DNA of 64,000 nt from Haplodiscus bocki (GCA_965655095.1 OZ296656.1:22568001-22632000), one strand, 5' to 3'. Shown: positions 16,135-60,982, counted from the first letter of the stretch. Numbers and translations: made by a program. Notes: generated by a model from the sequence alone, not told the origin.

Positions 16135-17872
16135 TGTCGCAGCACGCCTGCGAGGCCTGGGGGACAAGCACTCCCGGAAGTAAAGGACATCCCAGCTCCT
16201 TCTACAAAATAGACTGGAAACTCAACAATCAATAAAGTTTGTACATAGTGTTGTCTTAATGTAAATGATACGTAACGCCCACGTATCACCTTTTGAAATT
16301 GTGTTCATATAGACGATACGTAGTGTCTACGTATCGTTCTTTTTTAATATTTTCATGTAAATAGCACGTATCGTATAGGTGCAAATCTGGTGTACGGATC
16401 CAGATTGAGAAGGAACACCTACGGAACAAACGGATACTTACATATTTTCCTAATTACATATTTATATTATTAGAAAGTGATAAATTTATAAGCATTTGTG
16501 TCTCTATTCTTATAAGTCCACCTTTTCAATGATCAGAATGGCGACTTAAATTGTAATTGATAAATGTCAGTAAGGTTGCTGTGGCTATGATTGCAAATAT
16601 AGAGTTTGACTTTAAAAGTGAATATTTGTTCCGTTCGCGTTCCCTCGCTAACAATCTGGTGACGTCACTAGAATTAAATCCAATCCACTGTCCTACTATA
16701 CTGTGGCAATTTGTCCAAACACGGAGCGGTTCCGTAGCCACTCAATACATTCTTCTCAGTAGCACTTCAATAAGCAATGCTACAGGCGGCTACGAAGTCG
16801 TTCCGGAACGCTTTGGCCAAAAAGAGGAAACAGCTAGTAGAAGTGAGAAACGAAGTAGGAACAAGCCGCGCTTTGTTCCAAAAGTATACATAATCGATGC
16901 AGTGAAATCGCATGTCAATTTCTGACATGCAAATAAGATTTTTCCTTCATTCATTCCTTTAATACTGGATGCAATTACTAATAGTTTAGTATTATGGGAA
17001 AACCTTTTGATCTCTTGTTTGTAATAATAAAAAATCTGTCGGCGCGGGGATAAGCCTTTTGATGTCCTTTTTTTTAAAGATTAGGCCCGTACTGTTTCCG
17101 TCGAAAGATGTAAAACCGCGGCCTATGTAAAGAGATATGGTTGGAAAGGTGTTTAATTCCCGCCATAGTCGGCATTTCTGCTTTATAGATAAAATGAATA
17201 AAGTAACTTTCCCTATTTGCACATCAAATTGGCGTCTAAAGAGTTTTGTTTCCTGCCAAGTAAAAAATATAAATAGGTGGAAAGAAAGTACTAGTACTCT
17301 AATAATTTGTATTGTTGAAGCACCATTTAACCCTTTGTAACTCAGTTAATTGTCGTTGAAAACTATTTCTCCCTCAAAGAGAAAATTTTATCCTGTCAAG
17401 AACACATTTTCAGAATGAAAAATCAAGTCATTCTTCACAACTGTTGAGCTTTTCTCTCCTTGAAATTATGGCAAGTCAACGGATTGTGCGAAAGTTAGCA
17501 GCTCGTACAAAAGAAACACAGGAAACTGAGAGAAACAGCCAGTTGCAGAACACGTTCGTTGGAGGTATGACCGAAGAGTACATTACACAAAGTTCAGAGG
17601 AGATTGTAGGCAGGGTTACTGAAAAACTGTCCGAAGAATTTAGTCGAACAGAGTCACGTGTTGCAGGTGCTCTGCCCAAACCTGACGAAATTCGTCGAAC
17701 ACGCGAATACGGACATGCTCCGGAACCGTTCCGAAAACAAACCAGAACAGTGACTTAGAAAACCAGGAACCCACTAGAAATCGTTCCCAGAATGATCCCT
17801 ATCCCAAAATGGAGCTCTCTACTTGTCGGACCAGCAACTTAGCTGATTCAGATCAGGAGAAAACCCTTAACA
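16135..17872 (+). repeat. 5' LTR of copy A (~1.74 kb)
   Basis: Begins TGTCGCAGCAC exactly where similarity to the post-PPT sequence at 27988 begins; ends ACA immediately before TGGTG; contains TGACGTCA (16660) and CCAAT (~16681). Confidence 0.8.
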
Positions 17873-20800
17873 TGGTGCCAAGAACTCAAGAAGGGATTCA
17901 CTTTTGCTACCTTGGGACTTCTTCAGGGAAACAAAAGAAGGCGCGCTCCACAAATCAGCCACCGTTTCGCAGTAAGAACATCTCTGTGACGATAGATGCA
18001 GACGAAATTTCGTCGAACCTTCAAAAATTAGCGAGCAGCATTAATTCAGCCACTTTCAATCACAACATCGCCAGAAATATAAAACTGCCCAAATCCCTCA
18101 CGACGACAATTCCCACATTCAGTGGGGAATCACAAAATTTTGAACTGCTTGTAGACCGAAAGAATCTGACAGAAGTTCTGACTGTGTCCTGTAGAAAATA
18201 TGTCAAACCCCAGTCATTGGCTACGGCAAAACACAAATTTCAACATCTAGTCTTCAATCCAGCGAACCAGAAGTTAATTGATTTCATGGATTAACTCCAT
18301 AAACTAGCAGAAGATGCTTCCGGAGTCGCCACCGAGGCGATCATAGAGCAATTCATATATGCCAAGATGCCTCCAAAACTGAAGAAATCAATCAACTTGG
18401 CTCATTTGGAGAATGGTGCGTATAAAAAATGTGTCGCATCTTGAACGGATTTAGATTTATATGGTATGGAAGCCCCAGATATCTGCAGAAAAAAACTTTG
18501 ACGCAATAAACCGAAAGACCGACTCCTGAGAAACCCAAACCAAGTTGTTACCACGGCAAAAGGCCACGCCACCACAGAAATCAGTGCCAGCAAGTCAAAC
18601 GAGAAAAAGACCAAGCCTAAAACACCACAGATAGTGCTGGTAACAGTACTAACAACAACAGTGGTCAAACAAACTCCAATTCCAACAACAAGAACACCAA
18701 TAAAAACAATGCAAACAATCGAATTGACGGAAAACAAAGGACCGTCTACCCACCCTGTGACACCTGCAGCAAAACCAACCATTCCACAGAGAAATATACT
18801 TTGGAGCCAATGCAGCCAAAAGACCACCTCCCTGGAACAGAAGACTGGAAGCTTAGAATCAGGTCCAACAGAGAGACAATCAAAGTAATTCGAACGATAG
18901 CGCTCAAGATGCAGCCCAAACGTAAACTACAAACGCCACGTCTTCACTCCGTGACTGCAGTTGACAGACCGGAGACCAGCACAAAAGAACTTCTACCGGT
19001 TCCCATGGTTGTCTTGCATCAACCCCCGGAGACATCTGTCAATTACCACAAGTTGGATAAAATTCTTATTGATGACTTTACAATGCAAAGTAATGTAGAC
19101 ACTCCAGAACTCAAAACTGCACAATTATCTGACATAGCGAGTCAGACGTCACCACCAGAAGGAGTTCAACCACAAAACCACGTAATTGCAACGGAACGAT
19201 CCCAAGGAAGTCAAACACGAAACTAACTTTTATCGCTTCCCATTCGCTCCAATATTTGTCCTACCGACATCCAAGAAACAGTAAGGCACACAATGACTAC
19301 CCTTAAAGGAGATACCAATTTCCCGTCCCACAATTACAACCCGCACATTGAAGAAAAATTAGTGAGAGATGAGCAGACCAATGATTTATATCTCCCGTTA
19401 ACGTCTACAGTAGTCCCCAAACGCGAACAGAAAATGCTGTATGTGCCTTTTGATTTCAAGAATAACCTAACAACGGATGCTTTGGTAGAGTTGAGAGCAT
19501 CTGTCAGTGCGATCGCCCAGAACGAATTCGACACAATAAAACAACAAGCCTTGAACAAGATCTTAAAAAACGACGACACTCCCAATTTTCAAAAACAAGT
19601 AGGAAACTGCCAGTTAGAGAAACTCTTAGCAGCAGTTTGACTTGAAATTGATGTCGGAGAAAACACACTTGATGAAAAATTCGTCGTAGTGGAGAAGATG
19701 ACAGTGCCAATCAAAGGTTTGCACTTCAGGACTATTACAAGTGTTGTCATTAACACGACGCATGGCCACAAACATTTCCTGCACCTGACAATGCAAGTCA
19801 AAACTCCCTCAAGTGAAACAAGAGCAGAACCCCAGGCTGCCCTCACTGACAACGCCGTGACAATACCACCAGAGAAAACGAAAGCAATCACGACTTTTGT
19901 TGACTAACCCTCAGAATGGAATACAAGATGTACTGTGACAGCATTGAAGAAATTTACGGAAGCAGCAAGTCTGGTGATTTGCCAGTCAATGTCAACCATA
20001 TTTGAAAGGAAATTAGCAGTCAGAGTAAACAACCAGGGGCATGACCATATTCAATCAAAAAGAAGACGCAAATTGCCGAGTTCTCCGTAGTCACTCCGGA
20101 GCAGACCAAAATAATCAAACCAGTGGAGTTGGCAAACCTCAGTAAGATTCCGTAAGTTGCTCCAGAACTGACAATCTATTTGAACGTTGAATGAACTCCT
20201 GGGAACAAATGAACCAGAACAACAAAACAACATTTTCTGTTTTCCAACACCTGCAAATCATCGCAAATTTGAAGATCACACCCCAATTCAAACACGAATC
20301 GTCAAAAACTGTCTCCAGCCATAATCTGCCGAAATTCCAACCCCCTTGAAAGAAAACCAATGGGTTGTTTTTATCTCTGATGCACATTTATGGAATCATT
20401 ATAGTACTGCTTCTTTCCAGAAACGCAAGTCCCATTTTGGCACAGAGAAAACCCAACGGAAAACTACGTCTTCATGTCAAGCTCAGAAAAATCAACAACC
20501 TAATTGCGGTTAAACCAACCAAAAACAATCATCCTGCTACCATTTTGTCAGATGCGGCATAACAGTTGGTAGGGAAGTCTTTTTTCTGCAAACTAGGTTC
20601 CTCTCTTCTTTATCACAGTTTGCAGAAGGCGGACCAACGATCAGTTGAAAAGCTGGCATTCACTTCTGCCAGCAAAACCTTTGCCTACAAAAGACTTTCA
20701 CAAGGGCTCATCAGATCTGTATCTGCCTTTTCAAGTTTCATGCGTGAGAACTTGGACACAGTTGTCAAAACTGGTCAAGGCGCTCAGTACTTAGACGATA

Positions 20801-23580
20801 GTGGAAGTGAGGCCAACAGTGCTACGGGACTTACTGCTGAATTTTTAGGCAGTCTTCAGGTGCATTCGCCAGGGAGAACTAAAGCTGACCTCAGGAAAAT
20901 GTCAATTTGCTGTCTGAGAAAAAAAATTTCTTGGCCGAACTATTTCGCTAGAAGGAGTTTCATCGCACTCTCGGAAGATTCACAAAATTTTGACAAACTC
21001 AAATTCCCCAAATCAAAAAGGCCTAACAGCGCTATCTGGGATTCGTAAATGACAAGAGAACTTATTTTCCCAGACTGTCCGAATTAGTAGCTCTCAAAGC
21101 AGAAGTGCCAATCATTATCACATCAGAGCAGAAAGACACCTTTGAGGCAGTGAACAAAGCGTTAAGTGAAGTCTGCAAGTTAGCCATGAAACAGCCCAAT
21201 TCAGAGAAGCAATTTGTCCTGATGACCAACGCAAGCTTCAAGATCGAGTATGTTCCTGACCAGAAAATACAAAGAAAGCAGAAAACGTACGCTCCCGTGG
21301 CATTCGGATCCAAAATCTTCTTCCCAGCGCAACTCAAAGTGTCCATCTACTCGAACGAATTTTAGGCAGTCTTCAAAGCAATTCTTGAGTTTTCATTTTT
21401 TTGTGGTAAGCAGCAGAACCGACAACCAGTCTGACAGATACAAAACCAGTTCTGCGATTTTTCCAGACGAAAGCAATTCCACCAGCGCTGTGGAATGAAT
21501 GTGACTAATTGTTGCATTTTAACTTCGAAATAGTACACACTGCCGGGTCAGCCAAGACAGCAGCTGATTTTCTCTTTAGACTAGAACTCAACGTTACGGG
21601 GAAGATACGTCTCAAAATACGGGACGACCTTCAAACAACACTCCTGAGGTGACAACTTCTTCCTCGGACGTCGCTGATGAAAGACAATTATTCTTCACTC
21701 AAGCAGACAATGAGAACGAATCAGAAGAAAAGACCTTTCACCGAAAGAAACAAACTCGACAAGACGCAAGGAAATGGGTTATAAACTCGAAACAATGCGC
21801 ATTGACGACTAGCGTCAAAAAAATTTCAAAGATCGACGAAAACTTTACGTCCTACTCCATCAAAAAAACCAGGCAATTTTGCGAATACGAATGAAGCAAG
21901 ACATCTATCTAGCTCTGAAGAATTCAAAACTTAAAAAACTGGGCCATTTTTTTGATGCTGTGCTCCTAATGACAGACAAACGATACAGCACTATAAAGCA
22001 GACGAGGATTGCATAACCCTCAAAGATGGCCTATTGTTCTGGATATATGACGGAGAAACTTGTAGAGTTAAATACTACCAAATTGTCATTCCAAAGCAAA
22101 TAAACAAATAAATGTCCCGGAGCCTGCACGGAGAAACTAGAAAGCACTCAGGAGTTACCAGATCAATAGTTGCTCACAAAGAAAAGTACTAAAATCGGAA
22201 CATAGCGCAACTGATCAGGGAATGGGTCATTTCACGTAAGCAAGGCATTAGAGATTCACGGTTCGATCTTAGACTCGCCAGCTCACCCCTGAAAAATGCT
22301 ATCGAATACTTCACAGCAGCCGAAGACGCCATGCAAATTGAGTTGGAGCCTAAATTGTCTCTGATCGTTGGCGACGACAAGATAGTGACAGCCAAAGATG
22401 TAATTTCCTGCAATTTTTTGCCGACCCTACATCCGACCAAAAAGCCAAAACAGTTGCAAAGTCAACGTTATCATAATGATCAAGCACGTCAACTTACCAA
22501 CGACACTAAAGTCGGACAAAGAATCTGTCTTTTGTGTCTCACGTAACCAAAGAAGTAGCTAGAGTCCATAGAATTACTTTGAAGCACGTCACAAAAAATC
22601 ACGCAAAAATAATGGCCATGCTTGAACTATCTCACGCGTCATAAAAAGAAGCGTTAAAGGTTGCAAAAAGCAAGCCAAATCAAGGTGGCTTAATTACATC
22701 TGCATTGTTTTCCTTAAATACAACCCTTCTTACAACGCAAGCATTAGCTATGAGCCAAACTGAGTGTTTAATGGATGTATTCCTAAAATTGTCCTGGATT
22801 TAAAATTGGGCAATACTTCGCAGCAAGCATTCTTAACCAATTTGCAAAAAGTTGAACATGTTTTCGAAGAAACGGAAATGATCTACAAAATTTTCCGCAA
22901 AAATGCGATGCAAGCTTACATCAAAATGAAGCCTAATACGATATACGACAAGAACGTCAACGCTTCAAAATTCAAACAAGCACATTATGTTTCTGTCTTG
23001 CAGCCGAAATCAGACTATTAGGGAATTGGAAACCTTTTCACAGAACTCCGGTGGATTGAACCGTATATTATTGAAGAGAACTTACCAAACAACAAATACT
23101 TGCTAGGCAAAGTTTGGACCGACGAAAAGCATGTGCTTCATCGCATACCACTACGTCATTTCACACTTTGACAAACCAAAACCGATGTACAAATCACGCC
23201 ACAAAAAGTGAATCTCTATCTGAACGGGAGCTTTAAACATGATAATTTGTACGCCAGAGCATGGCCACGCGAAGACGGAAGGCCAAATTTTGATAACAAT
23301 CACAATAATGTGGCGACACCCGATTCAACCGAAATTGCAGTAAAATCTGACTTACCAACCGATGGAGCGGCTCTTACTGAAGGAATCTCACGAAGAGGTT
23401 TCCCAGAACTTTTTCCCAAACTTATGAGTTATGTGACGGAACAGACACGTCTTTGCACATAGAACCTGATGTGGAAACGAGTTCAGAACAACCTAACCTT
23501 ATCCCTACTAAACCACGCTGTACGAAAAAAAATTACGTTACAATCCGAAGCCGAATTGTATTGATGATTTTAGATAGTAA
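17468..23580 (+). pseudogene. decayed gag-pol polyprotein (Gag with two zinc-knuckle remnants, aspartic protease, RT, RNase H, integrase)
   Basis: Protease DALVELRASVSAI (from ALVDSGA); RT ASPILAQRKPNGKLRL and AQYLDD; RNase H FVLMTNASF and VAFGSK; integrase region ~22100-23100. PR-RT-RH-IN order is Ty3/Gypsy. Numerous stops and frameshifts. Confidence 0.92.
17873..17887 (+). promoter_or_regulatory. Primer-binding site (degenerate, possibly tRNA-Leu type)
   Basis: CA|TGGTGCCAAGAACTC; the equivalent position reads TGATGACATGA in copies C (29435) and D (2605); the 3' LTR of copy C stops at about this point (46168). Confidence 0.6.
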
Positions 23581-23899
23581 ACATTTTAGCTGCATGAGTG
23601 TGTTCCACGGAACGCATAAGGAGACACTCCAAAAAAATTCGGAAAGGGGTTCGGAACCAAAACGTAGCTATTCAGAAGTTTCCTCTTAATTTTTTTTGGA
23701 TATTCCATGCCGACTGACTCACTTACTGTTCAGTATTACCTGCTTCAGAAACACGGCCACTAAGGTTAAATTCATCTCCATTTTCAGGCCGGATACATAC
23801 CATACTATGGATTATTATTTTTTGATTATCCGACTAAAGACTATATACAACAATTTCAGATTAATGCAATGAGGACGGCAGTTTAATAAAACAGACGAA

Positions 23900-26800
23900 G
23901 GTAAATAAAGTCGAATAATGAAAAAATAATGCTGCAAAGTATCCCTATGACATGCCATATTGAAAACAAGGGCGGTAGGTCGATCCCCCAAACTTCGAGC
24001 GAAGTCCTGCGAGAAGGCTGTACTGCCAGGGCGGATGGATAACATGGATCCTCTACCAAGGATCGTCTCTGAGGCGTTACAGGAGGACTCGCAGACTCAC
24101 ATTTGCGAGGCAATCTCAAGAGTCTCGAGAAATTCTCTTCTTTCGTTCGCCATGGAAGCACGAACTTTGCTGGACGCAGGAGGAACAGGAGCGAGAGAAA
24201 CAACTGGCACGTATTCGACACACCCCTCTTTCACGACAATGGAGATCCGCACCCCGGACTTGACGAGGTCTCACTTCGAGAGTGCCACTATGGTACCATT
24301 GCTCACTGGCTTTCTTTGCAGTACGCCTGCGCGAGTTAGCCCGGTCCCAGTAAGCACGCAAATTAGTCACAACTTGGCCTGCACTCACTGTCTCCACATG
24401 GCTCCACGGAGCATAAACGTGGCTTGAAGTGATAGTGTCAGCGATGGCCGCATATTCGGAGACAATCGTCAGGTCCGATTCCCGAAAGAAGCTCCTTCAA
24501 AAGCTCATCTACGAGCTTGTTGAAACGCTGTATAGGAGCAACATCATCCGCATCAATCACAATTGTAGTGCAGAAACAGCCCACTCTTTGTCCTACAAGC
24601 AATTTTGAAGCGACAGTGGACAGCAGACAATTCACCAACTCGTCAAGGAGGTTACGGGAATCACGGTGAAACACAGTATTCAAATCGTGGTTTCCAACTT
24701 TGTTCGGAGGTTTCATCACGCGCGTCCCGGCAAGAAAGTCCTGCTCAGTTATGGCAGGCACTCGGGAGTCATTGAGTGTAACATACTCCCGCTCCCACTG
24801 ATCTAAAAACGGCAAACAGGAGCTTTTTTTAATTCTCCGCACCAGGCAGTAGATAAACGGCGCCAATTCTCCAAAGCATGATACCGTTAATCTTCTGCAA
24901 ATGGGTATTGAGTCAAATTCTTGGCAACTGAAACAGCAACCTATGTCACAGTCATAGAAACAACTCCAATATAACCCAGAATTTTCCACGATGCGTGAAA
25001 TTCACCAAAATGAAAGTGTGGAACCAACGGGGAAGATTACTAGTGCGTTCTTAGAACATCGTGTAACTAAACCGGAATGACGACGTAACCAAATACAGAA
25101 CAGCAGAGACATCACTAAAAACTCAAAGACCTCAAGCAGCATATGGAACAAACGTAACTTGAGCCGCGCGAACTGGTCCTAATAAAAATAGCCGTATCTC
25201 ACATTTTTCTAACTTTCATAAATACTAAATACATGGGTTCGAAATTGTGATAAAGCAACAGAAAAAGGAAAACCTTACCACAAGACTATCACCGTCATCC
25301 TTGCAACCTGTCTCTTAATGAGACAATTAACGACCACATACGAATGATTTTTGTCACAGCGTTTACGAGATATGGCATCGTTAGGTCGTTTGTTAAGATA
25401 GTTTCTTTAAGGGCGGCGCGAGATGACATCTAATCCTGTGTCTCAGCGCCTTTCAACCAATTGACCATGAACTCAGTCATTACGAATGCGTCTGAGCTGC
25501 CGAGGACGTTGGAGGTTATGCGCTGCAAAGAAATTTTAAAGAGGCGGAGATTCAAAAATGTGTAGCCAATCAGTTTTTGACGGTACCCACAGCCGAAAAA
25601 GTTGCAATTTGCCTCATCAATAACAATTGATTAACCGCGGAGTGATACAACACACAAATCAGTTCCCAAAGCATATACAAAGTGACCTAGAACAGCAAAT
25701 TCAAGATGAGAGTTGTCCCTGTACCGGTCCAAATTTGCCACACACACCCTGCAAAGCACATCATGATCCCACTTTCGCAAGAAGACCCACACTTCTTCAC
25801 CCCGTTCTTCGATTAGGATGCCCCAACCCCGATGCATTTTCGCCCGATTGATAACACGTGACAAAATCCGAAGGTGGTTCCCATTGAGGATAAGAGAGTA
25901 AACACGCAACAAAAAATTGAACATATAACGATACGCACGCAATAAGTAGGAAGTGGAAATACCAATCAAGACCTCGTCACATGACCACATCACGTCTACG
26001 TTCACAAGTCTACGAGACCAAGTGAACTGCGCGCAGAGCTGATACACCAGCTCGTAACTCCCTCCCAGCCGCAAAACCTCAACCAGGGAAAACTTTTTCG
26101 GTGTTACTGAAATATTGGGATCAACAGCGCCAGACTCGTCCACAATCAGGTCTTCTGAGAAGGAGTATTCCCTGTCTTGCACAAGCAAAGGAGCTCTCCA
26201 GGGGCTCTAGCGTTGACGTTCCAGTCCAGCAGGGTTCATTGGGGTGCCCTCATAATCCAGCAACTCGCAGCCTGGTGTCTCCAACCTCAACCGTTGGTCG
26301 CAAGAAAAAGTATGCTGCCTTGAAAATTCCGCAAGATCTCATGGGGACCGTGAGTGAGCAGGAACACGTCCTTGCAACGCACGCAACTGAAAAAAGGACT
26401 GCCTCGTGCAACAACATATTTCGGTGCAGTCACAAAAAGGCGGCCGACATCGCTTGCCTTCCACACCGTCCTCATCTTGTTGGTCGGCTTAGACCGCACC
26501 CTCGGTCGAGGTTGACTCACATCGGTCTCATCACCACTTGTTTCGCTAGTATCTAATGTCCAAGGAAATACATATGATGGTCCTTGTTCCTTCTCTCCAA
26601 AGAGCTCAAAACGTCGTCTCACTCTGTGAACAACAAAACATAAAAAGAGGGTGAGAAAAAACCATACGTGGTTGACACGGGACAGTACTCATTTGTCTTT
26701 ATGGGATCAAAAATCTGCGCACTCAAATCCGCACAGATAGAGCGAAACAATGTGACAAGCTGGTGACCCGTCGCCTTGATAGGTGTGACAACATGGTCGG

Positions 26801-27030
26801 CAAAAAAGTGGCCTAAAACAAAATATAGTGCACCCAACTTCAAATTCAGTTTCGGAACAACCCGGAACACCTGAACCATTTTTTCTTGAAAGAACAGTAG
26901 GCTCACCAGGAAAATCAATTACTGAAACGCAACAGTCCATGATGCCTTCTTCATGCACAGACACGCGCTTGCCTTGTCGGGGACGTCAGCCTTGCTTTTG
27001 TCTGAGTGAAATTCATTTTCATTCAATGAA
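23900..27030 (-). pseudogene. antisense cargo gene of copy A (zinc finger, hAT-transposase-like, spliced)
   Basis: Fragments 26619-26918, 26287-26622 (CVRCKDVFLLTHGPHEILRNF), 25631-26188 and 24438-24989 are collinear with the genes at 51810-54675 and 35250-38970; most of the acidic first exon appears deleted. Confidence 0.78.
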
Positions 27031-27120
27031 TGGCGTGCCTAGTACATGGTGGTTATATATTTCTATCCATTAAAAATCATAAATATTGATTTTCAAGTTT
27101 GATTAATTTGTCTTCCTGCA

Positions 27121-27312
27121 ATGACGTCAGCATGCATTTTGAAGGACGCATTGAGGAACGGTACTCAGGTGTTCTTTATTTTCAAATTCCTTCGTTTTGC
27201 GGTTTGTTCACATCCCATCAACGTCAACTTTACTTCTCACTTCAAATTTTCATCAACTCTGACTCGTAACGCGGGAACATCAAAGACTATGCCGCTGGGT
27301 GAAAGTGAATGA
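27121..27312 (+). CDS. small accessory ORF Z (copy A, truncated)
   Basis: MTSACILKDALRN aligns without gaps to 51418-51696 with several synonymous third-position changes. Confidence 0.5.
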   Translation: MTSACILKDALRNGTQVFFIFKFLRFAVCSHPINVNFTSHFKFSSTLTRNAGTSKTMPLGESE

Positions 27313-34960: not shown

Positions 34961-35249
34961 AGTTTCTCAGTATTTCATATTTTTTTCCTGGTTTTCCCTA
35001 GTAAAATAAAAGAATCGCTTAGGTATACTCACTGGGTTTTTCCTGAAGTCTTTCTGCAGATTCTTTACTGATAATTTGCCCGTTTCTCAAGGGAACCTGA
35101 AGCTACATATTGGTTGTAGACTAATTGACTTGCTACTCTCTCCCATCACGTCAAAAAGACTATTCCCATGATTAATCCACACTAAAAATACAAATTTTTA
35201 GTTTGCAGTTAAAGATGTACAGGAAGGCGTAGTTCAACTTTAGTTGAAA

Positions 35250-38200
35250 AATCTGCATCTTACCACATTCCTAGATTGGAAGTCTGGGTGACTGCTGGTT
35301 TAAAAGGGCCTTGAAGCTTGGGTCATCAAAACAAGAAAACCATTTTCGAGGAATGAAGGAAAGGCTCTAATTCGAGCTTTTCTTGTTATTGAAGGGACTA
35401 GCAGAAGGAGCCTTCTTTTCTATTTTGTCGGTAACGTTTCGACTTTTACTAAATTAGTGGAGTCCGAGCTCATGTTCATCGATGAACACTTAGTGTGTAC
35501 GTTCTTCCTCAACTACATCAAGAATCTATTTTAGTGATCTTGTGACTGGCTCCGACACAACAGAAGACTCTTTGCTTGCAACACTGTACCACAGCTGTTC
35601 TTTGTATCTAGCCATTGGTTGAAGAAAAACATAGCGTTGTTCACCCAAGCACGAAAATCAGGTTAACCTCAGGCAATGAATCCGTCCCAACAAGCCCGCG
35701 ACGATCAAAAACTACACTGGTGGTGATGATGTTGGTCATGGCAAACCTACATCGAGTCGGAAGACAATTTCTGTCGGGTGAAAAGAGGACTCTTGGGCCC
35801 GGACAATTGGCTCACGCACTACCAAGGCTGTCTACCGAAAGTACTGAAACAAAAAAGTACTCACTTTCTCTTACAATGTTTAACCCTTCTCGCCCTTCTC
35901 ATGTAGGATATATTACATACGTTGTACAAATGACGCCGAGCGGGGAAACCAACCTGTGAAGATTGGAAGGACGGGATAATCTCTACATTTATATGATTCC
36001 TGTCAAAACCTCACAATTGTCTCTCCTGCATGAATGACGGGGAATTGCCTTAGGATTCTTGGATCTCAGAGCCATTGATACAACCTCTATCCGTCAACCC
36101 TTCTTTCGAGACCCCAAAAAATGAAATGGAGCTTAATTGCGGCCCCCAATCAGAGTTGCGAGGCAGACACAGCTTAGCCCCTGGCCCATCAAAAGTCTTG
36201 CAGCGACAGCAGAGAGTACACAGTTCGTAAAATTCTAATGAAATCTTAGAGCATCTTACCAACGTTTTGTTTTCAAGTAGCAACTCCCGATTTTGTTGCG
36301 AACTATCAAACGACGTGTCCCGACGATAATTTGCTCTCTCGAGTTACAGGGTACTTGGAGTAGTTGGAGAACTTGTACTCCTCTGACTCCTTACTAAGGC
36401 GGAAGGAATAGCATGTCCCTGTCCTGTGGAGAAGGCAGCAAGTGAACCGGCAAGGTTCACCATAGGCAAAACAGCCATAATTAGTGCTTAAAAACTGCTG
36501 TAGAAGGAAGTTGTCGTAAAATGAAACTGAACAAAACTTTTTTACCAGACAGTGAACGTGGAATTTATCCCAAAGAATCCTAATTACAACCTTCCCACAT
36601 TTATTTAGCAACAAACTGGGAACAAGAATAGTGAGTTCCTTGATTCTTGCTGCAGATAATCGGAACAGTTACGTCAGAAAAAATGGAAATATTATAATCT
36701 TATGTAATACAATATTGAGCATGAAGACAAAGTTCTGCAAGCATGCAAAGAGACGAATGGTCATGCGCTCCATCTGGTAAACGTGGAAATACCCTTCCAA
36801 ACTCTTTCTCGAATCAACAGAAGCAAAAACTGCTACAAAAAGACAAAGGCAGTAAAATTGGAACCGTGAAGTAGACTATACCCTTAGATTGTCGCTGTCG
36901 CCTTTTTCCGACTTTCTTCTTCGGGTACAAGGCAATCAAGTGCCGAACCCCGAATTTATTCTCAACCAGTTTGATGAGGCTTGATCTTGAGAGATCATCC
37001 GTCACTACAGTTCTCCGGATGACGGGGTGGGAAAGCATCCAATCCAAATGTTCGGTTCTTTCAGCCTAGTGGGAACAAATTTGGCCTCCAAGAATCGATC
37101 AAAACTCCCGAAACACCCTTGAGGTAGACAGTGCTTGAAAAGGCCCATGTTATAGGTCGTGTAGTCAATTGGGTTTCGCTTGTACCGGCTGCGGATGTAA
37201 CTACTAACCGAGTCTTCAAAAATATGGAAGCCACCACAGAGGGTGAAAGCAGAAACATTACTATCAATGACTTCTACAAATCGTTCGAGAATTGCAGTCA
37301 TTTGCTGGGGATCGCCACTCCAACGGTTGAGGACCGCCACACAATATCTTCCAAACTCAGTCTTCTTCCATGTGCTTACCAAAACCCAGAACTTTCCGAG
37401 GTGCTCCTAAAAATTTGTGCGACCGGAGCTGTAAGCTTTAGCCCAACACCTGACTTAGGAAAGGATGCTTGGTACATCCTGCTTAGAATAGTGGATTTCA
37501 CGAAATCTTGTGAGGCTCATGGGTGAAAACAAACGCATATTCATTCGGCAAATTGGGCAGCAAAATTGATTGAACGTCTCGATTGCATCAGTTGAAACAT
37601 ATGCAAAGAATCGACAACATCATACGACTCAGAAAGTTGTCCCCGTTTTGTAGTTTGCCTAAGTCTCGTCACGGATCGTGTCGAAAGTTTCCATCGGAAG
37701 AGGAGCTGGCCGTGATGGCCTTTGGTCCAGTCCGCTAAGCACTTCATAAAACTCGGTGAGCAAAGAAAAAAACGTACAACAGATACGAGTAAATACTTGT
37801 AAATTGAGGAGAAGACATTAACTACTCTTGATGGGGCCCATAGTCTGCATTGTGTCTTCTTCGCAGACTGAGCTAAAACGATTGATGAGATAGTTACCAG
37901 TCGCGTGAACTGTTGCACTGGCAGAATTGACAGCAAGATGGTCTGCTCAGAAAACCCGGACCTGAGGAGCCAACATGGAACGATACTAGTATTGTACTCA
38001 CTTGGAACAAACCATATCGTCGTCGAATTTTTTTTTCAAAAGGTCGAGACTGCAATCACGTGTACAGTGCAAAACGGAGCTGATGCGCTATGGGTTGAAA
38101 GGACTAGCTGAAGGGTGATCATAACGTCTTTTCTATTTGTGTGAATGTAGGCCTCTACCGCGCCCTTGAATAGTCACCAGCCCTGGAATAAGCTCAGACC

Positions 38201-38970
38201 ACTTCATCTACAAAAAACCAGTAACTCGGTGTCAGAGTACAAGAACCACAAGAGTAGTATAAACTTGACGCCATTGCCAAGGAAGGGTTCTCTTGGTGCC
38301 TCTTGCAGAGACATCCTCTCATGATATCGCACCCTCAGTCTTGATTTCAATTCCTCAAGTATCCGGAACATCAACTGTGTTCCTCAGGATATGCAACCGA
38401 CTCCCCGGAAGAAACTAACACTGAAACACACAAATCACAGGAAGTACTCTTGATGTAACAGCACACGCTATAAACTACCTTAGAGGAGAAATGTAGCTTG
38501 CCTATATGTTACTCTATAGGCAACAGTTAACGAGAATGAAGGATGAGTACTACTCCTTGGTTATTCTTGAAGTAACCACAGCACCTTTAGAATGAGTCTC
38601 TCAATCTTCAAAAACATCAGCAAATCCAATTGCTTCAGGTTTAGCCCTTCTGTCGCTGGCATCAGAGTTGACAACGTCCACGAAGCCCTGGTTTCTGTCA
38701 TCGCTTTCCGCTTACGTGGCCGGAAGTGCTACGGCCACCCTCTGCTTCATCGAGCTCCAAGCTTTGTAATGGCTCCAAGCTCATTGAGAACTCACCTGGC
38801 ACAGCTGCCTCCGTTTCTCTCCAAAACAAAAAAATCGTTGACAAAAAGAGGATTCAGAGACAATCGCAGTGCAAAGAATCACGAGAGATTAGTCCCTGCG
38901 GCCGTCAATTTTTTTGGCAAAGGGGATGACACCCCTTCAAATTCAGAAGAACTATTCCTGGCACAAAACT
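35250..38970 (-). pseudogene. antisense cargo gene of copy C
   Basis: VSTWKKTEFGRYCVAVLNRW...AILERFVEVIDSNVSAFTLCGG (37005-37382) matches copy B VLTWERFTFRRVCVAVLSRL...TILAKFLDATGPDTSVVSLHGG; NCVLSAVAARLLMGQGLSC (~36200) matches copy A NCLLSTVASKLLVGQRVGC. Confidence 0.72.
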
Positions 38971-39048
38971 TGCAAAACAGACGTGGAAAATCAAAAGGTG
39001 GTAAGACATATTTTTTGTTCATGGATTTTTACCTGCTCGTGCTGGCAA

Positions 39049-49349: not shown

Positions 49350-50823
49350 TTCATTCGAATAAGTTAATTCAGGGTCAAGCATGTTCTGAGCTCTACTGTT
49401 TCTAGTACATTCAGGTGTTTCTCCCGAAACTGCTGCTAGTTTCCTCTTATTTCTTAAAGTTGCCATGAGAATGAGGGAAAAGTTTTATCAGTTATGAAGA
49501 CTGAATTTGAGCTTTATTTTTGTAATGAAAGTGATTATATCCTCTTGTTATGAGGGAAAAGAGTCTCCAAAGAAATACAACAGTCAAAAGTGCGAACAGT
49601 TCAATATTCAGTACAATACTCAAAGGCGACAATGTATCTATTAATAACAAAACTTTATTTGTCCTATTTATACCTTTCCTTGGCGGGAAACATAATTGGT
49701 TACACGCCAAATTAAGGTACAAATAGGGAAAAGTACTTTAATCATATTATTTATCAAAGAGAAAGATGCCGACTCTGGCGGAAAATAAACACCCTTCCGT
49801 CCATTTCTTCCTTCACGGATCACGTCTTTTCCATCTTTCGACGGAAAAAGTACGGGTCCGATCTGTCGGAAATGGACATCAAAGTGGTTATTCCCGCGAC
49901 GTAACAATAAATAATGACAAAAACAAAAAATCAAATAAATTTCCATACAAGGAAAATACTAAAGTACAGTAGAAAAACAATTTAAAGTATGGAAAAATAT
50001 TGTTTATATATACTAGACAAGTTCATGTTTACATCTTGCGTCAATTAAGTCTACTGTTGGGAACAAACTAGGCTTTTTCATAGTACGTTCCACGTTTCTA
50101 CCAGCTCACGCCTCACTTTGACCGGAGCGTTCCGTGGAGACTACGTAGCCGCTTGTAGCACTGCTCTCCGCAGTGCTATTGAGGAGAATGATTCTGGTGG
50201 CTACGTAGACGTCCCGTGTCCGTCCAAAGTGAAACAGCGTAGTAGCACAGCGGATTGGCTGAAATTCGTGTGACGTCACCAGATTAGCTACGACGGAACA
50301 CATACGGAACAATTATTCACTTTTAAAGTCAAGCTCTGTTCTAAGAGTTAAACTATTGAAACTTGTTAAACCTGTCAGTCTAAGCAAAATTACTGCACAG
50401 GTTAAAAGGTGGATTTTTATAATAATTAGCTAGATCAATTAAATTAAATAGAACCTGATATTATTATAAAAATACAGTGAATAATCGTTTGCTCCGTATG
50501 TGTTCCGTCCCAAAAGGATCAGTTCACCAGAATTACACGTATCGGATACGTGCTTTTTACATGAAATCAACCTTGTGGGACGATACTTAACTACTACGTA
50601 TCGTCTACTTGAATTACTTGTGTGAATACTAGGTGGATACGTACCTACTACGTATCCTAAATATAAATTATTGAATACATGATGGGTTAAGTGAAAACAT
50701 AAGCTTTATTAGTTCGTAACTGAGTTTGAATGTCTTTAAAGTTCTAATTCTTGTGTGATGGACTTGGGATGTCCTTTGCTGATGGGATCGTCTGACCGCA
50801 GGCTTCGAAGATGTGCCGCGACA
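49350..50823 (-). repeat. 3' LTR of copy B (end truncated) with gag start MATLRNKRKLAAV at 49466
   Basis: Minus strand reads AAAAGAAGGGGGAG|TGTCGCGGCAC; matches the 5' LTR of copy A through the gag ATG. Confidence 0.82.
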
Positions 50824-51410
50824 CTCCCCCTTCTTTTGGAAAGGACATTCCCCGGCTCAATTTCCTTTTTTGTTTTCGGGGTGGTGACGGCGGCGATGAA
50901 ACGCTGGAAGAAAATAGATTCTCCAGGGCTCGTAACTTGAATAAAACCTGTCGTCGTCGGTCGTCGTGAAAGACGTCTCGCAGTTGTTGAAGGCCCTTAA
51001 ATTCATAGGAGGCGTCAATATTGGGGACGGTTCTGACGGCTCCGGTGACTGCGGGCTATAAATGTCATCATTGGCATCCGCAGTAAGGTTTGCGACCACC
51101 ATTGTTGCCAAGATGTTAAATGGGTTGGCGGAAAGTTCAAGTCGTTCAGGCTCGGCGGGACGATTGGGAGCTGCCGTCCAAATCCATATGGCATTGTTGG
51201 ATGGTTAGAGTCATTAATAATAGTAAAGATTTGAGATTTGAGGGATGCGATAGAGGTAATTGAGGGCATCCCTGTCGTATGATGTTCCGATAGTTCCGTC
51301 GAGTTCAGGATATTCGGAGAGTTGTTTTGTTGCACACTAGGCTCGTTGGAGATTTGTTCCACATGGAACACATCGGAATCCATCGAATTAATCGAAATAT
51401 TGGATGACAT
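50744..51410 (-). pseudogene. accessory ORF Y (copy B, frameshifted)
   Basis: ORFs 51015-51410 and 50857-51111 join into an S/P/N-rich protein ending FPKEGGVSRH...PSPSHKN*. Confidence 0.65.
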
Positions 51411-51417
51411 GCTGAAT

Positions 51418-51696
51418 TTAGAGAGAAAATCGAATAAGTTTCGTGATTGAACAGCTGAATTGGAAAAGTGGAAAAGAAAGAGTGATCGGTATTGCGGGTA
51501 ATGATACTTCGTTGTTATGGAGCGGGATTTCCTTTGATGTTCCCGCGCCGCTGATCAGCATCACTGAAGGTAGGAAGTAAAAAGTGCAGTTCCAATTGAT
51601 GAGATGTAAACAAATCTCAAAAATAAAGTCTCTAAATTTGAGGAACACTTGAGTATTGTTCCTCAATGTGTCCTTGAAAATACAGGCTGACGTCAT
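51418..51696 (-). CDS. small accessory ORF Z (92 aa)
   Basis: Open ORF, homolog of 27121-27312; its stop lies 7 nt before the ORF Y ATG. Confidence 0.55.
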   Translation of the reverse strand: MTSACIFKDTLRNNTQVFLKFRDFIFEICLHLINWNCTFYFLPSVMLISGAGTSKEIPLHNNEVSLPAIPITLSFPLFQFSCSITKLIRFSL

Positions 51697-51809
51697 TGCT
51701 GGCAGACAAATTAATCAGACTTTGATTAAAAAAATTACGAATTTTTTGAATAAATATGTAAATCCACCATGTAATAGCTCATTAACCATATCGTTCATTA
51801 TTGCAAATA

Positions 51810-54675
51810 ATGAGTGCAACTGAGGAAGAGGTCGGGATAACATCCCCCTTTGGCGGGAGTGTCGCCACTGACGAGCAAGAGCTGGCAATTGACGAGGGTG
51901 TTCGTGAGAGCAATGCAGTCCCCACTTTGCAGTTTGTCCCCGATTTGGATGTGGTCGTCATGGAGGGAGAAAAATGCGTGAGTAGAGGGTTGGTGGAAGT
52001 CGAAGCAAGTGATAGTCGGACTGAAGAAGCCAGTGAAGGAGATAGTTTTCTGGACATCATGGGCGGTTTGGAAAAAGAGACGGGAGGTGAATCTGAAGGA
52101 TTCACGCTTGAAGACATTCTTCGACATGCAGATTTACTGTCAGAGACTGTACTGGAGGCTGTTGTCGATACTCTTGATTTGCCAATGTGTTAGTCCTCAT
52201 TCTTCATATTCCTTTAGCTTTTCTTTTGAGGAGTAATATGGTGGCCATCCATATTCTCCATAATCTAGTATTCAGCGCGCGACTCTTCATGAAGATGGCA
52301 CCATGGGGCTTTGTGTTTTAGTATTTGATTCTTCCGGAGAGCTTGTTAATGGCCCTGAGGAGACGGTGTGTGGTGTTCCGTGTAGTTCCAGAACCGAGTT
52401 TGTGATGGGGCGCTCTACATCCAAAGAGGAGGCTTTTGGCACTTCGACAGGTGCTCCCATGGAAATTCCGTCAAGTTTTAGCATCAGTGTGTTCTGTTTT
52501 GGCAAATTAGGGATCATCTGATTTCGTTTCCCTTTTCCAGGTGCAGCTAGTGATGGTCCTTGTTTCTCCAGGGCTGGTGATGTATCGACTGAAACTGAAG
52601 TGAGGCACAAGAGGAAACGAAGGCAAGCCGTCATCACACGCCGCCTTGTGCCTTTATCGGGTCAGGAGCCAAGCCCAGTTGAATTTGGAAGTCGGGAGCG
52701 GAGCAGAGAATTGTTGGAGCAGGCATTTGACGATGCTAATGGTGAATTCAAAATGAGGATACTTTAGGTGTGGTTCCTTGTGGGTTCCTCATTTCTTTGA
52801 ATTGTTTAGACCATATTCCCGTTGACCCTGCAATTGCTCCAATCAATGCCACCGGACATCAATTGGTGACACTGTGCCGCTCAATTTGTGCTGAAGAAAG
52901 AGCACAAATTTTGGATCGGCTCATGTGGAGTAAGTATATTACTACGTATTTCATGGCTTTCGTTGTCTTCCTCTTTTCACTTTATTTCCTGTTCACAGAA
53001 TTAGATGCCGATCTCCAGCATTTGGGACATGGTTCTGCACCCTTGAGTCCACATGCTGCTGACACAAGTGACAGCAGTGCAGACGAGTTAGAAGCAAGTC
53101 CTCCCCGTCGACGTGTGAGGTCAAAGTGCACATTCAAAATGAAGAAGGTGTGGGGAGCAGATGAAGTCGGTCGGTTCTTCGTCACTGGGGCTACAGATGC
53201 AACTGGCAAACCTAGCCACATCTACTGTCGCATTTGCCGCAAAGACGTTTCAGTTCTGACCCACGGCCCACATGAAGTCCTGAGACACTTCCAAGGTGTC
53301 AAGCATTTCGCCCGTGACCAGCGATTGATACGGGAGACACCTGGTTGGCGGGTACTGGACTTTGAAGGAAACCCCCTTAGTGAGAGTGAGCTGGAGCGTC
53401 GCAGGGAGTTCATTCTTCGAGGTCCTCTAGTCATTGGCGATCGGGAGCATCCCTTTGCTGAGGATCTGATTGTGGATGATTCTTGAGCTCCGAATGCCAA
53501 ATTATCAATCCTTGCTAAGGTGTCGTCGCTGGTTTAAGTGTTGCGATTGGGTGGGTCCTACGAGCTTGTCCATCAAATGTGGTCGCAATTTACATTGACT
53601 GCCAGCCGAGTGAACATAGACGTAACATGGTCTTGGGATGAGGTGTTGGTTGATATTTTCCGTTTTATCTGTCTGCGTATCCATGTCCACTGGCTTATTG
53701 ATGTTGTGTTTTAGTCGATCATTTTGAACGGGATGTACTCCTGTATCCTTTCTCGCGTGTTTGGTTGGTTGAAGGCGTATGGGCACTGCAGCATTGAATT
53801 TGAGGAGCGCGGATCAGAAATTTGGGTGCTGGTGCTGACATGGGAAAGGTTCACTTTTCGACGTGTTTGTGTGGCGGTGTTGAGCCGATTGAGCGCCAAT
53901 ACTACCCTGGAGGCTACAATCTTGGCAAAATTTCTTGATGCTACTGGTCCCGATACATCTGTTGTGTCTCTGCATGGGGGCCATTTGTGTTGGCAGAGGC
54001 TTCTGCAAGCTATCTGGGAAGTAGATACGGTGCGAAACTCGTGGAATACCCCCCATTTGATCTCCGGCTATTGAATCGTTGCCTCCAGCGAACTGCTGCA
54101 TCCTTGTTTGGGAGCCTAGACCCATTCTCCATGACAGAGTTCGTGGTCAATCGTCTGAAGGGTGCAGAGACTCGGGACTGGATGGCGTCTCGTCCTGCAT
54201 AGCCCAAAGCCATCATCACCAACGATCTCTCCATGCCTGGCCTTGTTGATGTGGTGGCAAACATTGTTGGGGTAAGGCCACTGGTGGCGTTGTACTTGAA
54301 GGAGTCTGGCCGCAAAGACGATGGAGATAGTCTTGTGGTAAGGTCTTCCGCTGTGGGTGTATTGTCTGCATAATGTAAATGTGCTCATCACTTATTTGCT
54401 GTTTTTAGAAAAAGGGGATGGACGGGTATCTGTACCACGATCAGCTTGCTCGCGTGAAGTTCCGGCTGTTCCATCTTCTTATGGAAACCTGTAAGTATGA
54501 TCATCACATCCCGAATATGATTCATGTTGGTACGTAGTGGATCCGGATCAGTTCCTTGAAAATTTCTAGGAACGCACTAGTACCGTTCCATGATGGTTCC
54601 ACGTTTTACTTTTGGGTGGAATTCTGCATCATAGCAACGCATGGGTGATGCTAGTGGTAAGAGTGTGAGCTGATC
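51810..54675 (+). pseudogene. antisense (relative to element) spliced cargo gene: acidic N-terminus, zinc finger, hAT-transposase-like core
   Basis: ATG 51810; YCRICRKDVSVLTHGPHEVLRHFQGVKH; candidate GT-AG introns 52768-52809, 52930-52998, 53649-53714 and 54338-54408; a few stops; truncated by the Polinton. Confidence 0.8.
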
Positions 54676-55260
54676 AGGGGGGGGGGGTAAAACCTCCATG
54701 TATTAAGATAGGTTATAGCGAGCCGAGAGGAGCCGAGAGCCGAGAAGGGTCTACCACCCGAGCCGAGAGCGTTTGGGTTTTTTTCGGCACTGTGATACTC
54801 AATTCTGATTGGCTGACGACAAGAAATTGCTTTTTGGGCTAATTTTGATTTTTTTCTAATTGTAATATGAAAGGGTTTAGTTTCGGCCGTGGGTTCGTCA
54901 AGGTATTAAGATAGGGTATAGATTCGGCAATGTATTAAGATAGAGTATAGGTTCGTCAATGTATTAAGATAGGTTCGTCAATGTATTAAGATAGGACGGC
55001 AATGTGGTAAGATGTTGTAATGTATAAAGAATGGTTCCCGCAGTGTATTAAGATATGGAATAGGGTATTTTAGGAACTCTGCGACAATTTTCGGCACTGT
55101 GAGATTTTTCGAGAAAAAAATCTCGAATTTTTTGCCCACATGCGCCCGCCCGGGATAATTATTCCGCCGCCGGATAATTATTAAGCCGCCAGATAATTTT
55201 GCCTCCGCCGGATATTTTCCCCCAAGTAGTATAGTATGAGCATAAGTAGGGGGGGGGGGG
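54676..55260. repeat. putative Polinton terminal region with short repeats
   Basis: G11 and G12 runs; about 6 copies of gtattaagata; agccgag x4; ggataattatt-type repeats; tttcggcactgtga twice. Confidence 0.65.
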
Positions 55261-55278
55261 AGACGAGGTCTCCTACGG

Positions 55279-55338
55279 GGATTCGAACCTGCGCGGATGG
55301 AGTGCCGGACACCATAACTTTTTGTTGCGATTGAGCTA
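55279..55338 (-). promoter_or_regulatory. RNA polymerase III type-2 promoter-like A box and B box
   Basis: Minus strand TAGCTCAATCG (55338-55328) then GGTTCGAATCC (55289-55279), in tRNA-like order and spacing; no cloverleaf. Confidence 0.45.
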
Positions 55339-55439
55339 TTTAAAAATATTGTGGTAAAGTTTTGAAAAGTTGTTTAAAATGTATAAAGTTGAACACATAC
55401 ATTGTATAAATGGCACATTTATAGTAAATTGGTAATCAA

Positions 55440-55835
55440 TTACACGAAATTACTTATAAAAGAGAGTACATTGATATCATGAACACCAGTTGTCTCCTCT
55501 TGTTGAAACTTGAACAAATGAAATGCTGCATAAATTGTGTAGAAACCGCATACACTGGGATGATCTTGTAGTCTTGTCCGAACCATTTCACTGTAATTCT
55601 GCTTTAGAAAAGGGTAATTGTTGATGGATAGACCAAGATAGTCGGCAAAATACTTTTCATGATGAAACTTTGCAATCATTATTCAATGCTCTCCTGGCGT
55701 GTTGCTAGGCTGTGTTAATAATCGGAAACGTGTCATTCCGGAGGTTTGGAACAAAGTCTGAGGGAATGATCCCATTTACTGATACTTGAACAAAGGTATA
55801 CAGTTAACGATTTGTTTGAGGGAAGTGTTGTCCAT
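55440..55835 (-). pseudogene. adenain-like cysteine protease
   Basis: SNTPGEH*IMIA (H-W motif with W changed to TGA), YFADYLG and LQDHPSVCGFY. Confidence 0.88.
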
Positions 55836-57175
55836 CTCGAAGATTCTCTCCCACAACAACAAACTTGTCGACTGCAGCACAAGACATACGTTCACCCAAT
55901 ACAATAACTTCTGTAACATTTTCAAGAGGCGAACTAAAGTATAGCTTCAATCTCAATGGTTCTCCAATTAATTCCGGATAGTGACAGTGTTCAGTAGCAT
56001 CTTGCATTGAAGTCAGATCAAACACTAGTACGTAATGGTCTTTGAAATTATCAACTGGAATTGATGGAAGATCATCTTGGAAGTTCATCGCTGTCATTGT
56101 TGTGAGATACAAGCGACAATTATCTGCCGTATCGTGGTATACAAATGGATGTCCTCCTCTGAGTTTTCTAATATCTCTCAGATTAAACTCTTGATACCAG
56201 AATGGGTTCTCAGCAAAGGAACCAGTAAAGAAAGAGTTTGAATTCATTGCAATGGCTATTCGACGTATAGTGCGTTGTTGAATATTTTTTCTTGAATGAA
56301 TTGGTTCTGTCGTGCAGGAATGATAAAAGTCTTTGCCAACGTCTCCATGTAGTTGTATTCAACTGGAGCATGAGCTAGTTGAGACATTCTTTCTTTGTGA
56401 TAGTCTTCTTTGAGCATCACGCGCCGAGTGTACAGAGAACAGTCCACAATACCCAAGCTAACATTTGGATTCTCGCTAATCATGTAGAAATTTGGTCGCG
56501 CTCGAATTAGGCTGATTCGAATTTTCATATTTGGATAAAGTTATTCCGAAGTTGTAAAAAAATCGATGGCCAGCTTACCGTACATGAAACCGTCAGGTCT
56601 ACTGTACAATTTCATTCATCTAGTGAGAAATGGTCCTTCTAGGAAATTCTCTGGATCTTCTTCATAGTCATACCCTTCACAATGCAAGACTCCCTTGTAA
56701 TCTGACAAGGTACTTTTGAAACGGTTAGATTTGTGAGATTTGTGAGCATAAAGTCCATTCGAATTGTAGATTTGGTGATAGTTAATGTACAATTCTGCAT
56801 TAGAAAAAATGGAATGCAGAATATTGTTCACATGGGTAATGTGAGGCACTCCCTCGTCCTCTTCTATAAATCTAACGTCATCGTCAACTTTTTCAGTAAA
56901 AACAGTGCCTTCTTTCTACTCCTTTTTCTTTTCTGTTGTTTTGTAATTATCAAAACCACGTCCTTTAAATTTTAGAGCAAGATATGTTTGTCGCAAATCC
57001 ACGTAAACGTTGCGCTCTGTTTGAAATTCAAACTCAATACTGTTTTCATCAAAAAATGTAGTGGGATAAATTTGTTTTTCGTGAGAAGACAACACATTGT
57101 CCACAACTGGGACTTTCATACCAGGATTCCCAGAAACTGCAACAAAAGGTTGATACCGAAAATTAATTAGATCTG
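55804..57175 (-). pseudogene. double-jelly-roll major capsid protein
   Basis: SIEFEF..VDLRQTYLALK, NNILHSIFS, FTGSFAENPFWYQ, VFDLTS and LRLKLYFSSPL across four ORF fragments. Confidence 0.9.
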
Positions 57176-57181
57176 TGATTA

Positions 57182-57534: not shown

Positions 57535-57548
57535 TGTACACACTAATT

Positions 57549-58354: not shown

Positions 58355-58356
58355 AC

Positions 58357-59657: not shown

Positions 59658-59659
59658 CT

Positions 59660-60873: not shown

Positions 60874-60982
60874 CTAGTTTTGGACGCTCAAAATTCTTAG
60901 AATGAATGCTATAGAAAAAATAATTTCGAGTTGAAAGAATTAAATTAGTAGTAAACACAAATACAATACACACGTTCGGAAG

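Follow-up and report, generated by a model that had tools for sequence, protein, structure and literature searches.

The window analysed here, a stretch of 64,000 nt, contains three copies of one protein-coding gene, referred to as copies A, B and C (Table 1). The gene is an accessory gene of a Ty3/Gypsy retrotransposon family. It is antisense, is located between pol and the 3' LTR, and comprises nine exons and eight GT-AG introns, the summed exons amounting to about 1,170 codons. The remains of the element at copy B consist of the 3' LTR, a second extra reading frame (ORF2) and most of the gene, which breaks off at about position 54660. Its own gag-pol region is absent from the window; the retrotransposon setting of copy B is taken from copy A and from other copies of the family.

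Table 1. Features of the retrotransposon copies in the window. GT and AG give the number of family copies that keep the dinucleotide.
Feature	Position	Strand	Description
Element A	16135..23630	+	Decayed gag-PR-RT-RH-IN with a remnant of the 5' LTR; on the strand opposite to the antisense gene of copy A
Copy A	about 23900..27220	-	Same gene, old, partly deleted
Element A 3' LTR remnant	starts 27988		
Copy C	35200..39000 (limits approximate)	-	Third copy, much older; several intron positions still recognisable
Copy B 3' LTR	49400..50823	-	Decayed; start motif as in the family; element on minus strand
Copy B polypurine tract	about 50824-50837		
ORF2	50760..51554	-	Second extra ORF, sense to gag-pol; broken in B
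Putative internal promoter	51596..51809		Shared; between ORF2 and antisense gene; presumed function
Copy B	51810-54660	+	Decayed, 3'-truncated copy of the nine-exon gene
Exon 1	51810..52188	+	Start codon; acidic low-complexity region
Intron A	52189..52321	+	133 nt, phase 1; GT 37/39, AG 35/39; conserved internal motif
Exon 2	52322..52474	+	
Intron B	52475..52540	+	66 nt, phase 1; GT 55/60, AG 55/60
Exon 3	52541..52735	+	
Intron C	52736..52809	+	74 nt, phase 1; GT 56/60, AG 56/60; donor decayed in B
Exon 4	52810..52929	+	
Intron D	52930..52998	+	69 nt, phase 1; GT 53/60, AG 53/60; 67-139 nt across copies
Exon 5	52999..53648	+	C-x2-C...H-x5-H zinc finger, helical region; 2 stops in B
Intron E	53649..53714	+	66 nt, phase 0; GT 59/60, AG 57/60; 65-76 nt across copies
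Exon 6	53715..54337	+	RNase H-like core predicted (strand-strand-strand-helix-strand-helix); reading frame interrupted in B
Intron F	54338..54408	+	71 nt, phase 0; GT 58/60, AG 56/60
Exon 7	54409..54490	+	
Intron G, start	54491..54660	+	About 200 nt in the family, phase 1; GT 57/60, AG 60/60; copy B ends here
Exons 8-9 and intron H	only in copies other than B		Intron H: GT 54/60, AG 56/60

Family copies were collected from the 1.5-Gb eukaryotic assembly, whose mobile elements suggest an animal host. A single-exon query returned 6241 first-look candidates, 150 of which were scored, and a diverged query returned 6730; neither figure is a copy number. Twenty copies, picked by score or by long frames, were fetched with 20 kb each, and a further 40 with 5 kb each. 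Ten of the latter were extended, which gave 30 flanked copies overall. Because the best scorers among thousands of candidates were used, decayed and solo copies are under-sampled. The splice-site alignment has 62 rows, with counts taken over 60 copies, or over 39 copies for the upstream intron A. Copy E13, whose 5' part is replaced, was dropped from the upstream alignment, which included 20 of the 40 copies of the L series. The comparison of pol was made without E18 and F066, and those of ORF2 without E13, E08 and E17.

The intron ends are well conserved, and the acceptors are pyrimidine-rich. At seven junction pairs the GT is kept in 53-59 and the AG in 53-60 of 60 copies (88-100%), and all 14 tested junction dinucleotides show a conservation of 0.88-1.0. 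For comparison, GT dinucleotides in exons have a mean conservation of 0.49 (49 of 209 reach 0.85) and AG dinucleotides one of 0.47 (35 of 197 reach 0.85); in intron interiors the values are 0.37 for GT and 0.26 for AG. The phases agree from the end of one exon to the start of the next at all six internal exons, and every exon has one reading frame that is depleted of stops. The frame is intact across all of the last six exons in 15 of 60 copies, the remainder of exon length on division by three is preserved in 36-54 of 60, and the column of the start codon reads ATG in 33 of 39. Eight intron positions are common to three gene types that are about 60-65% identical. The metagenome contig L133 shares all seven intron positions tested and copy C shares them in part.

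An earlier note on this DNA had listed four short introns in copy B. Three of them, now introns D, E and F, were confirmed, and the splice dinucleotides proved to be conserved across the multi-copy alignment for which the note had called (GT/AG in 53/53, 59/57 and 58/56 of 60 other copies). The remaining one, a 42-nt segment, was placed correctly at its acceptor (52809) only. The donor proposed for it, at 52768, comes after a stop codon in frame and, being of phase 0, does not agree with the phase-1 acceptor. The donor of the family lies at 52736 (GT in 56 of 60 copies) and defines an intron of 74 nt. What speaks against this correction is that 54 of 60 copies also have the GT at 52768, which is located inside the conserved stem of intron C. 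Recursive splicing at 52768, which would produce pieces of 32 and 42 nt, was considered and rejected on account of the same stop and phase conflict. Introns A and B, the one that starts at 54491 and the one beyond the truncation of copy B were not described in the note, nor were the eight-intron structure, the likely transposase origin and the cassette types discussed below.

The two sites said to be shared with copy A are indeed present there, namely the acceptor motif of intron D (26632-26624) and the donor of intron F (25278-25273). The donor of intron D and both dinucleotides of intron E are lost in copy A, and the peptide joined by removal of intron E, described as the same in both copies, differs by one residue in copy A. 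The statement that intron interiors diverge more than the flanking codons holds for two codon positions out of three: between subfamilies the identity is 0.53 in introns and 0.69, 0.78 and 0.39 at codon positions 1, 2 and 3, respectively. Gaps are five times commoner in introns.

One might read the segments instead as in-frame coding linkers or as chance GT-AG matches. In copy B, three of the four lengths given in the earlier note are multiples of three and one frame of 246 codons spans two of the segments; among the family copies, intron B has a multiple-of-three length in 35 of 60 and intron C in 44 of 60, which also counts against introns. The comparison of copies refutes this reading, and we regard it as scarcely credible. 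The length of intron E falls into all three remainders modulo three (25, 18 and 17 of 60 copies), intron D varies as given in Table 1 and intron G from 154 to 302 nt, and the ends are kept while the interiors change and the phases match. The comparison likewise disposes of the case named in the note as contrary to its claim, that of conserved in-frame coding sequence. Conserved ends, matched phases, free length change and purifying selection on the exons support the view that the segments are spliceosomal introns and that the gene which holds them runs antisense to gag-pol, as the note had proposed from sequence.

Searches for spliced products covered two kinds of data. Of 265 database proteins, all of them gene calls on contigs, none contained a spliced-junction peptide; two matches to the pattern were out-of-frame chance hits. 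Four sequencing runs resemble genomic DNA, and none of the 15 joints listed, of about 285, matches an intron.

Several smaller features lie within the introns. Intron A carries a GC-repeat motif in 32 of 39 copies, also seen in the third gene type, which is a candidate binding site; it is adjoined by a palindrome in 26 of 39 copies. The stem motif of intron C is present in 43 of 60 copies. Compared with mononucleotide shuffles in 14 copies, intron C has a mean folding z of -1.7 in the sense of the gene and of -2.8 in the sense of the element RNA. Intron G folds as well (z of -1.4 and -2.2). These folds are possibly cis signals of the genomic RNA. As to genes of the host, introns in chaperonin genes appear to be longer (about 180-740 nt, from six gaps), with GT/AG-type ends visible in some of these few cases. 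Two chaperonin-family genes (L156 and L157) match the full model in one uninterrupted frame and have paralogues with introns.

The element that carries the gene is about 15-16 kb in length. In one copy, the Pfam families RVT_1, RT_RNaseH, Integrase_H2C2 and rve were matched above the cut-off, with the protease below it; the resulting order PR-RT-RH-IN identifies a Ty3/Gypsy element. Long direct LTR-like repeats with identities of 79.5-99.8% flank all 30 flanked copies, and the element ends, where mapped, show TG...CA, a primer-binding site and a polypurine tract. The gene is antisense to pol in 30 of 30 flanked copies and in element T1, and occupies the same position in the same orientation in 31 of 31. 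Perfect 5-bp target duplications were observed in 14 of the 30 flanked copies and in T1, the others being nested, in tandem or decayed. One copy of the third gene type combines LTRs of 99.9% identity with a target duplication. The family is a very abundant Ty3/Gypsy element with a protein gene on its reverse strand. At copies E09, E11 and E13 (L011-L050) and F075 (L146-L147) the repeats extend beyond the fetched edge, which suggests tandem or nested elements that share LTRs. More than one gene type has short inverted repeats, which lie between the gene's 3' end and the end of pol (L022:2004-2107; L089:4917-4988).

ORF2 (L017:6980-7879 on the plus strand in another copy) is arranged head-to-head with the antisense gene. 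Its product of about 250-300 residues is rich in Ser, Pro and Thr and has a basic patch and a C-terminal CxxC, the latter overlapping the start of the LTR; it matched no Pfam family. The dN/dS ratio of ORF2 between subfamilies is about 0.2. In the putative promoter between the two genes, two short motifs are kept in 33 and 29 of 39 copies. The segment 51596-51780 is 88-96% identical even across elements with differing gene types and contains motifs that we take to resemble CRE and forkhead sites.

Retention of introns through retrotransposition, another claim of the earlier note, is borne out by these copies. The introns have passed intact through the independent events marked by the target duplications, and none of 420 intron sites (60 copies, seven introns) is shorter than 40 nt, so no precise intron loss was seen. 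In a sampled stretch of pol, 26 of 28 copies have no insertion or gap of intron size and two have a gap of 40-48 nt. Introns in reverse complement are no substrates of the spliceosome, and sense introns are removed by retrotransposition. Retroelements are, however, also able to export RNA that is unspliced and still has its sense introns, so that the antisense orientation is the likely but unproven cause of the persistence.

The exons are under purifying selection. Between subfamilies, dN/dS is 0.08-0.16 in the six pairs with finite dS, dS being saturated in three further pairs, and a purifying pattern is present in every exon tested. The ratio of 0.33-0.42 among close copies is as expected from decay after insertion. 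A gene under constraint of this depth must be expressed, and one protein is possible only if the transcript is spliced. We infer, as the earlier note did, that the gene has its own spliced transcript.

The encoded protein gave no significant match in Pfam, NCBIfam and PDB sequence searches beyond weak sub-threshold C2H2 hits, and the Pfam families hAT, zf-BED and PF04195 (TRP28) were not matched. The Cys and His residues of the C-x2-C...H-x5-H zinc finger are kept in about 83-91% of rows. The ESM Atlas places the N-terminal half beside clusters of the hAT clan; members of the top cluster (0.94, 176 shared features) carry DUF4371 (18%), FAM200-ZBED5 RNase-like (18%) and ZBED1 RNase-like (12%) domains. 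The ten best named matches of this half all belong to one clan, which is also the case for one third of shuffled control proteins. The predicted model of the N-terminal half is poor (pLDDT 49) and shows an RNase H-like succession of three strands, helix, strand and helix at residues 263-340 in exon 6. The C-terminal half has a weaker model (pLDDT 41) and no related match in the Atlas (best 0.87) or in Pfam, including the dimerisation domain PF05699. In fold searches the two models matched only generic structures, either RNase H/actin-like or helical (with Z up to 5.5 and 6.1), and the matches listed included no hAT chain. Comparisons by hhalign with hAT alignments of 4-72 sequences, built from transposases of the same genome or from 64 database relatives, gave probabilities of about 1% or less, at the level of reversed and shuffled controls. 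An hmmsearch for hAT homology was not significant, and a search with the alignment of the N-terminal half among proteins of 913-2605 residues, a weak test, gave no match.

We placed the presumed catalytic positions by eye from what we take to be the hAT motifs. The first Asp is Glu in 51 and Asp in 3 of 70 rows; the second site is occupied by His, Ser, Ile or Phe, with Asp not among the four commonest residues, and the CxxH motif is not kept at its presumed position. The protein has a long acidic N-terminal extension and basic patches in its C-terminal exon. It probably derives from a hAT-like DNA transposase, although we do not class it as a member of the hAT superfamily, and to judge from the residues at these positions the catalytic aspartates have apparently been lost. 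Intact hAT elements are present in this genome, and the hAT frames examined are single long ORFs. One hAT family with an open frame of 624 codons occurs with identical scores at L107 and about 20 further places and has therefore probably been active recently.

Three gene types of the identity given above reside on backbones that are up to 95% identical. Between types, the divergence is about 0.1-0.2 in pol, rises to 0.3-0.5 across the gene and drops again past the 3' UTR. Over LTR, ORF2 and gag-pol, one element matches two others with an identity of 94-95%, against about 64% in the alignable part of the gene. The divergence has one edge directly after the shared putative promoter region and the other past the 3' UTR. 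The correlation between gene and pol distances is weak (rho 0.27 for 378 non-independent pairs), and the gene and pol trees differ (unrooted, compared without a clade test). Such sharp edges on similar backbones mean that old alleles move as blocks on a young backbone; as read from these alignments, recombination in the flanks that they share swaps the gene types as entire cassettes. Both balancing selection and uptake from extinct sister lineages could have produced the pattern of old alleles. The between-type comparison revealed no type-specific cis or target site outside the cassette.

Our preferred interpretation, to which we assign a probability of roughly 60%, is that of a separately transcribed accessory gene whose introns persist owing to its antisense orientation and whose product is probably a transposase-derived, DNA-binding regulator. 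The genomic RNA would very probably carry the introns as reverse complements, unread by the spliceosome, and every new copy would hence retain them. Transcription would, in all likelihood, start from an internal promoter beside ORF2, and splicing of the transcript would be followed by its translation into a product of about 1,170 residues; with the same confidence, taken jointly with this step, expression of the protein would be what selects for the splice sites and the reading frame. The protein, with its C2H2 finger and RNase H-like core, would probably stem from a hAT-like transposase that had lost its catalytic aspartates. By analogy with TnpA and VANC it may be nuclear and promote its own family; more tentatively, the same analogy suggests a sequence-specific DNA-binding activator or anti-silencing factor. 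Diverged alleles would be exchanged as whole cassettes through recombination in the shared flanks. Taken to its full extent, the interpretation is rather doubtful: a retrotransposon would have domesticated a catalytically dead, hAT-derived gene with eight introns, possible only because of its reverse orientation, as its own sequence-specific regulator, and the ancient alleles would circulate on a single gag-pol backbone as specificity cassettes that can replace one another, maintained by a frequency-dependent conflict, either with silencing by the host or between subfamilies.

The gene could in principle be a still-active, intron-containing DNA transposon that is nested in the retrotransposon and hitch-hikes with it. 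DNA transposons keep introns, and both the transposase-like features and the intact hAT elements of this genome fit this scenario, which we nevertheless consider very improbable. Position and orientation are identical in all flanked copies, the presumed catalytic aspartates are missing, and five copies, compared by the five longest of the 25-33 inverted-repeat pairs present in each, have no bracketing pair in common; the hAT frames examined, moreover, are not interrupted.

Two other functions, both live rivals of the regulator, would leave the spliced antisense gene as described. The protein might tether or chaperone the pre-integration complex (target choice, nuclear entry or protection of the ends) and have no part in transcription. 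A zinc finger on a transposase-like body under purifying selection and the basic patches of the C-terminal exon would suit such a role, and a nuclear role for antisense extra ORFs has been suggested in the accessible part of a review (PMC7264820). The element, however, already encodes its own integrase, in which a zinc-binding domain, a core domain and a GPY motif are present. Near-identical integrases are paired with gene types that differ greatly, and this speaks against a tight protein interface. We find this function unlikely. Less likely again is a self-restraint or immunity factor, i.e. a dominant-negative binder or repressor that limits copy number or excludes competing subfamilies, with alleles under frequency dependence. 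Old, sharply bounded alleles on a young common backbone would be in line with it, and antisense proteins of the HBZ type, according to the text available, inhibit the transactivator of their own virus (PMC3185765). On the other hand, the genome contains thousands of candidates of the family and very young copies with LTR identities of up to 99.9%, so restraint is not evident.

For the regulator that we favour, the individual components have precedents, as far as the accessible portions of the cited sources go. Antisense extra ORFs are known from plant Gypsy elements (maize Grande gene23, rice RIRE2 and the TRP28/PF04195 protein of Retand). Like the present gene they are protein-coding, lie between pol and the 3' LTR and are found family-wide; Grande gene23 has its own upstream promoter, and one plant domain is labelled 'transposase 28' (PMC7264820, PMC11963269). 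The word 'intron' is absent from the main text of these papers in its accessible part, whereas the gene described here has eight introns, encodes a far longer protein and lacks PF04195. A search for antisense spliced transcripts was urged in the 2020 review (PMC7264820). HBZ of HTLV-1 and APH-2/3/4 are regulatory proteins encoded, as proposed here, by a spliced antisense transcript of an LTR retroelement (PMC3185765). In the available description HBZ starts in the 3' LTR and has about 200 residues; the present gene is a separate multi-exon unit outside pol with a presumed internal promoter. Multi-exon spliced antisense RNA that is conserved across related LTR families has been reported for Arabidopsis Copia elements (bioRxiv 10.1101/2024.04.02.587720), where it is, in the text seen, non-coding and mostly LTR-initiated, in contrast to the present exons, on which purifying selection acts at the level of the protein.

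TnpA of Spm and VANC of VANDAL/MuDR are transposon-borne accessory regulators; the accessible text traces the DNA-binding domain of TnpA to a transposase and describes loss of catalytic residues as recurrent among transposase-derived regulators (bioRxiv 10.64898/2026.08.24.746577). They serve DNA transposons, whereas a putative derivative of a class II enzyme would here serve a class I element; the likeness drawn here is one of role. The hAT transposases and their ZBED/FAM200-type derivatives, the nearest Atlas clusters, have a C2H2 finger followed by an RNase H-like core, as predicted here; the present protein differs by the lack of a significant profile match, by the presumed DDE and CxxH positions, which are not kept, and by its acidic extension. 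Retrotransposition indicator cassettes also place an antisense gene with its own promoter in a retroelement, but with the intron, as far as the source was available, in the sense of the element and hence removed (PMC9719517); with the opposite orientation found here the introns stay.

Antisense extra genes, spliced coding antisense transcripts and spliced non-coding ones are thus known, from plant Gypsy elements, HTLV and Copia, respectively. In the openly accessible literature that we searched, no LTR retrotransposon is described as having a multi-intron, protein-coding or transposase-derived antisense gene, and the accessible parts of PMC12477816, PMC13547354 and PMC5418596 hold no direct precedent. 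What is new within that literature is the eight-intron, possibly transposase-derived antisense gene. Genes copied through RNA are expected to be intronless, and this family is a standing exception at scale, with eight canonical introns kept over many retrotransposition events, and so an instance of the antisense spliced genes for which the 2020 review had urged a search. If the transposase origin is true, one class of mobile element has been co-opted by another. With dated copies in the thousands and three alleles that can be swapped, it becomes testable what antisense accessory genes do in LTR elements, how a selfish element keeps a separately expressed gene under selection, and how splice signals evolve if the opposite strand serves as a genome. 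ORF-based annotation would miss or fragment such genes.

The remainder of the window contains further repeats. The minus strand from 55000 to 64000 is a decayed Polinton/adintovirus-like stretch with weak matches to an integrase (rve) and an A32-like ATPase and with frames that we take for capsid genes. Fragments on the plus strand at 41000-44500 presumably belong to a non-LTR retrotransposon (endonuclease/RT-like frames, C2H2 finger); a Pfam RT match was not obtained in this segment. A tandem array (period about 31 nt) and the longer repeats that come after it occur twice, at 6333-10212 and 39048-40194, with 89% identity over 1.15 kb.
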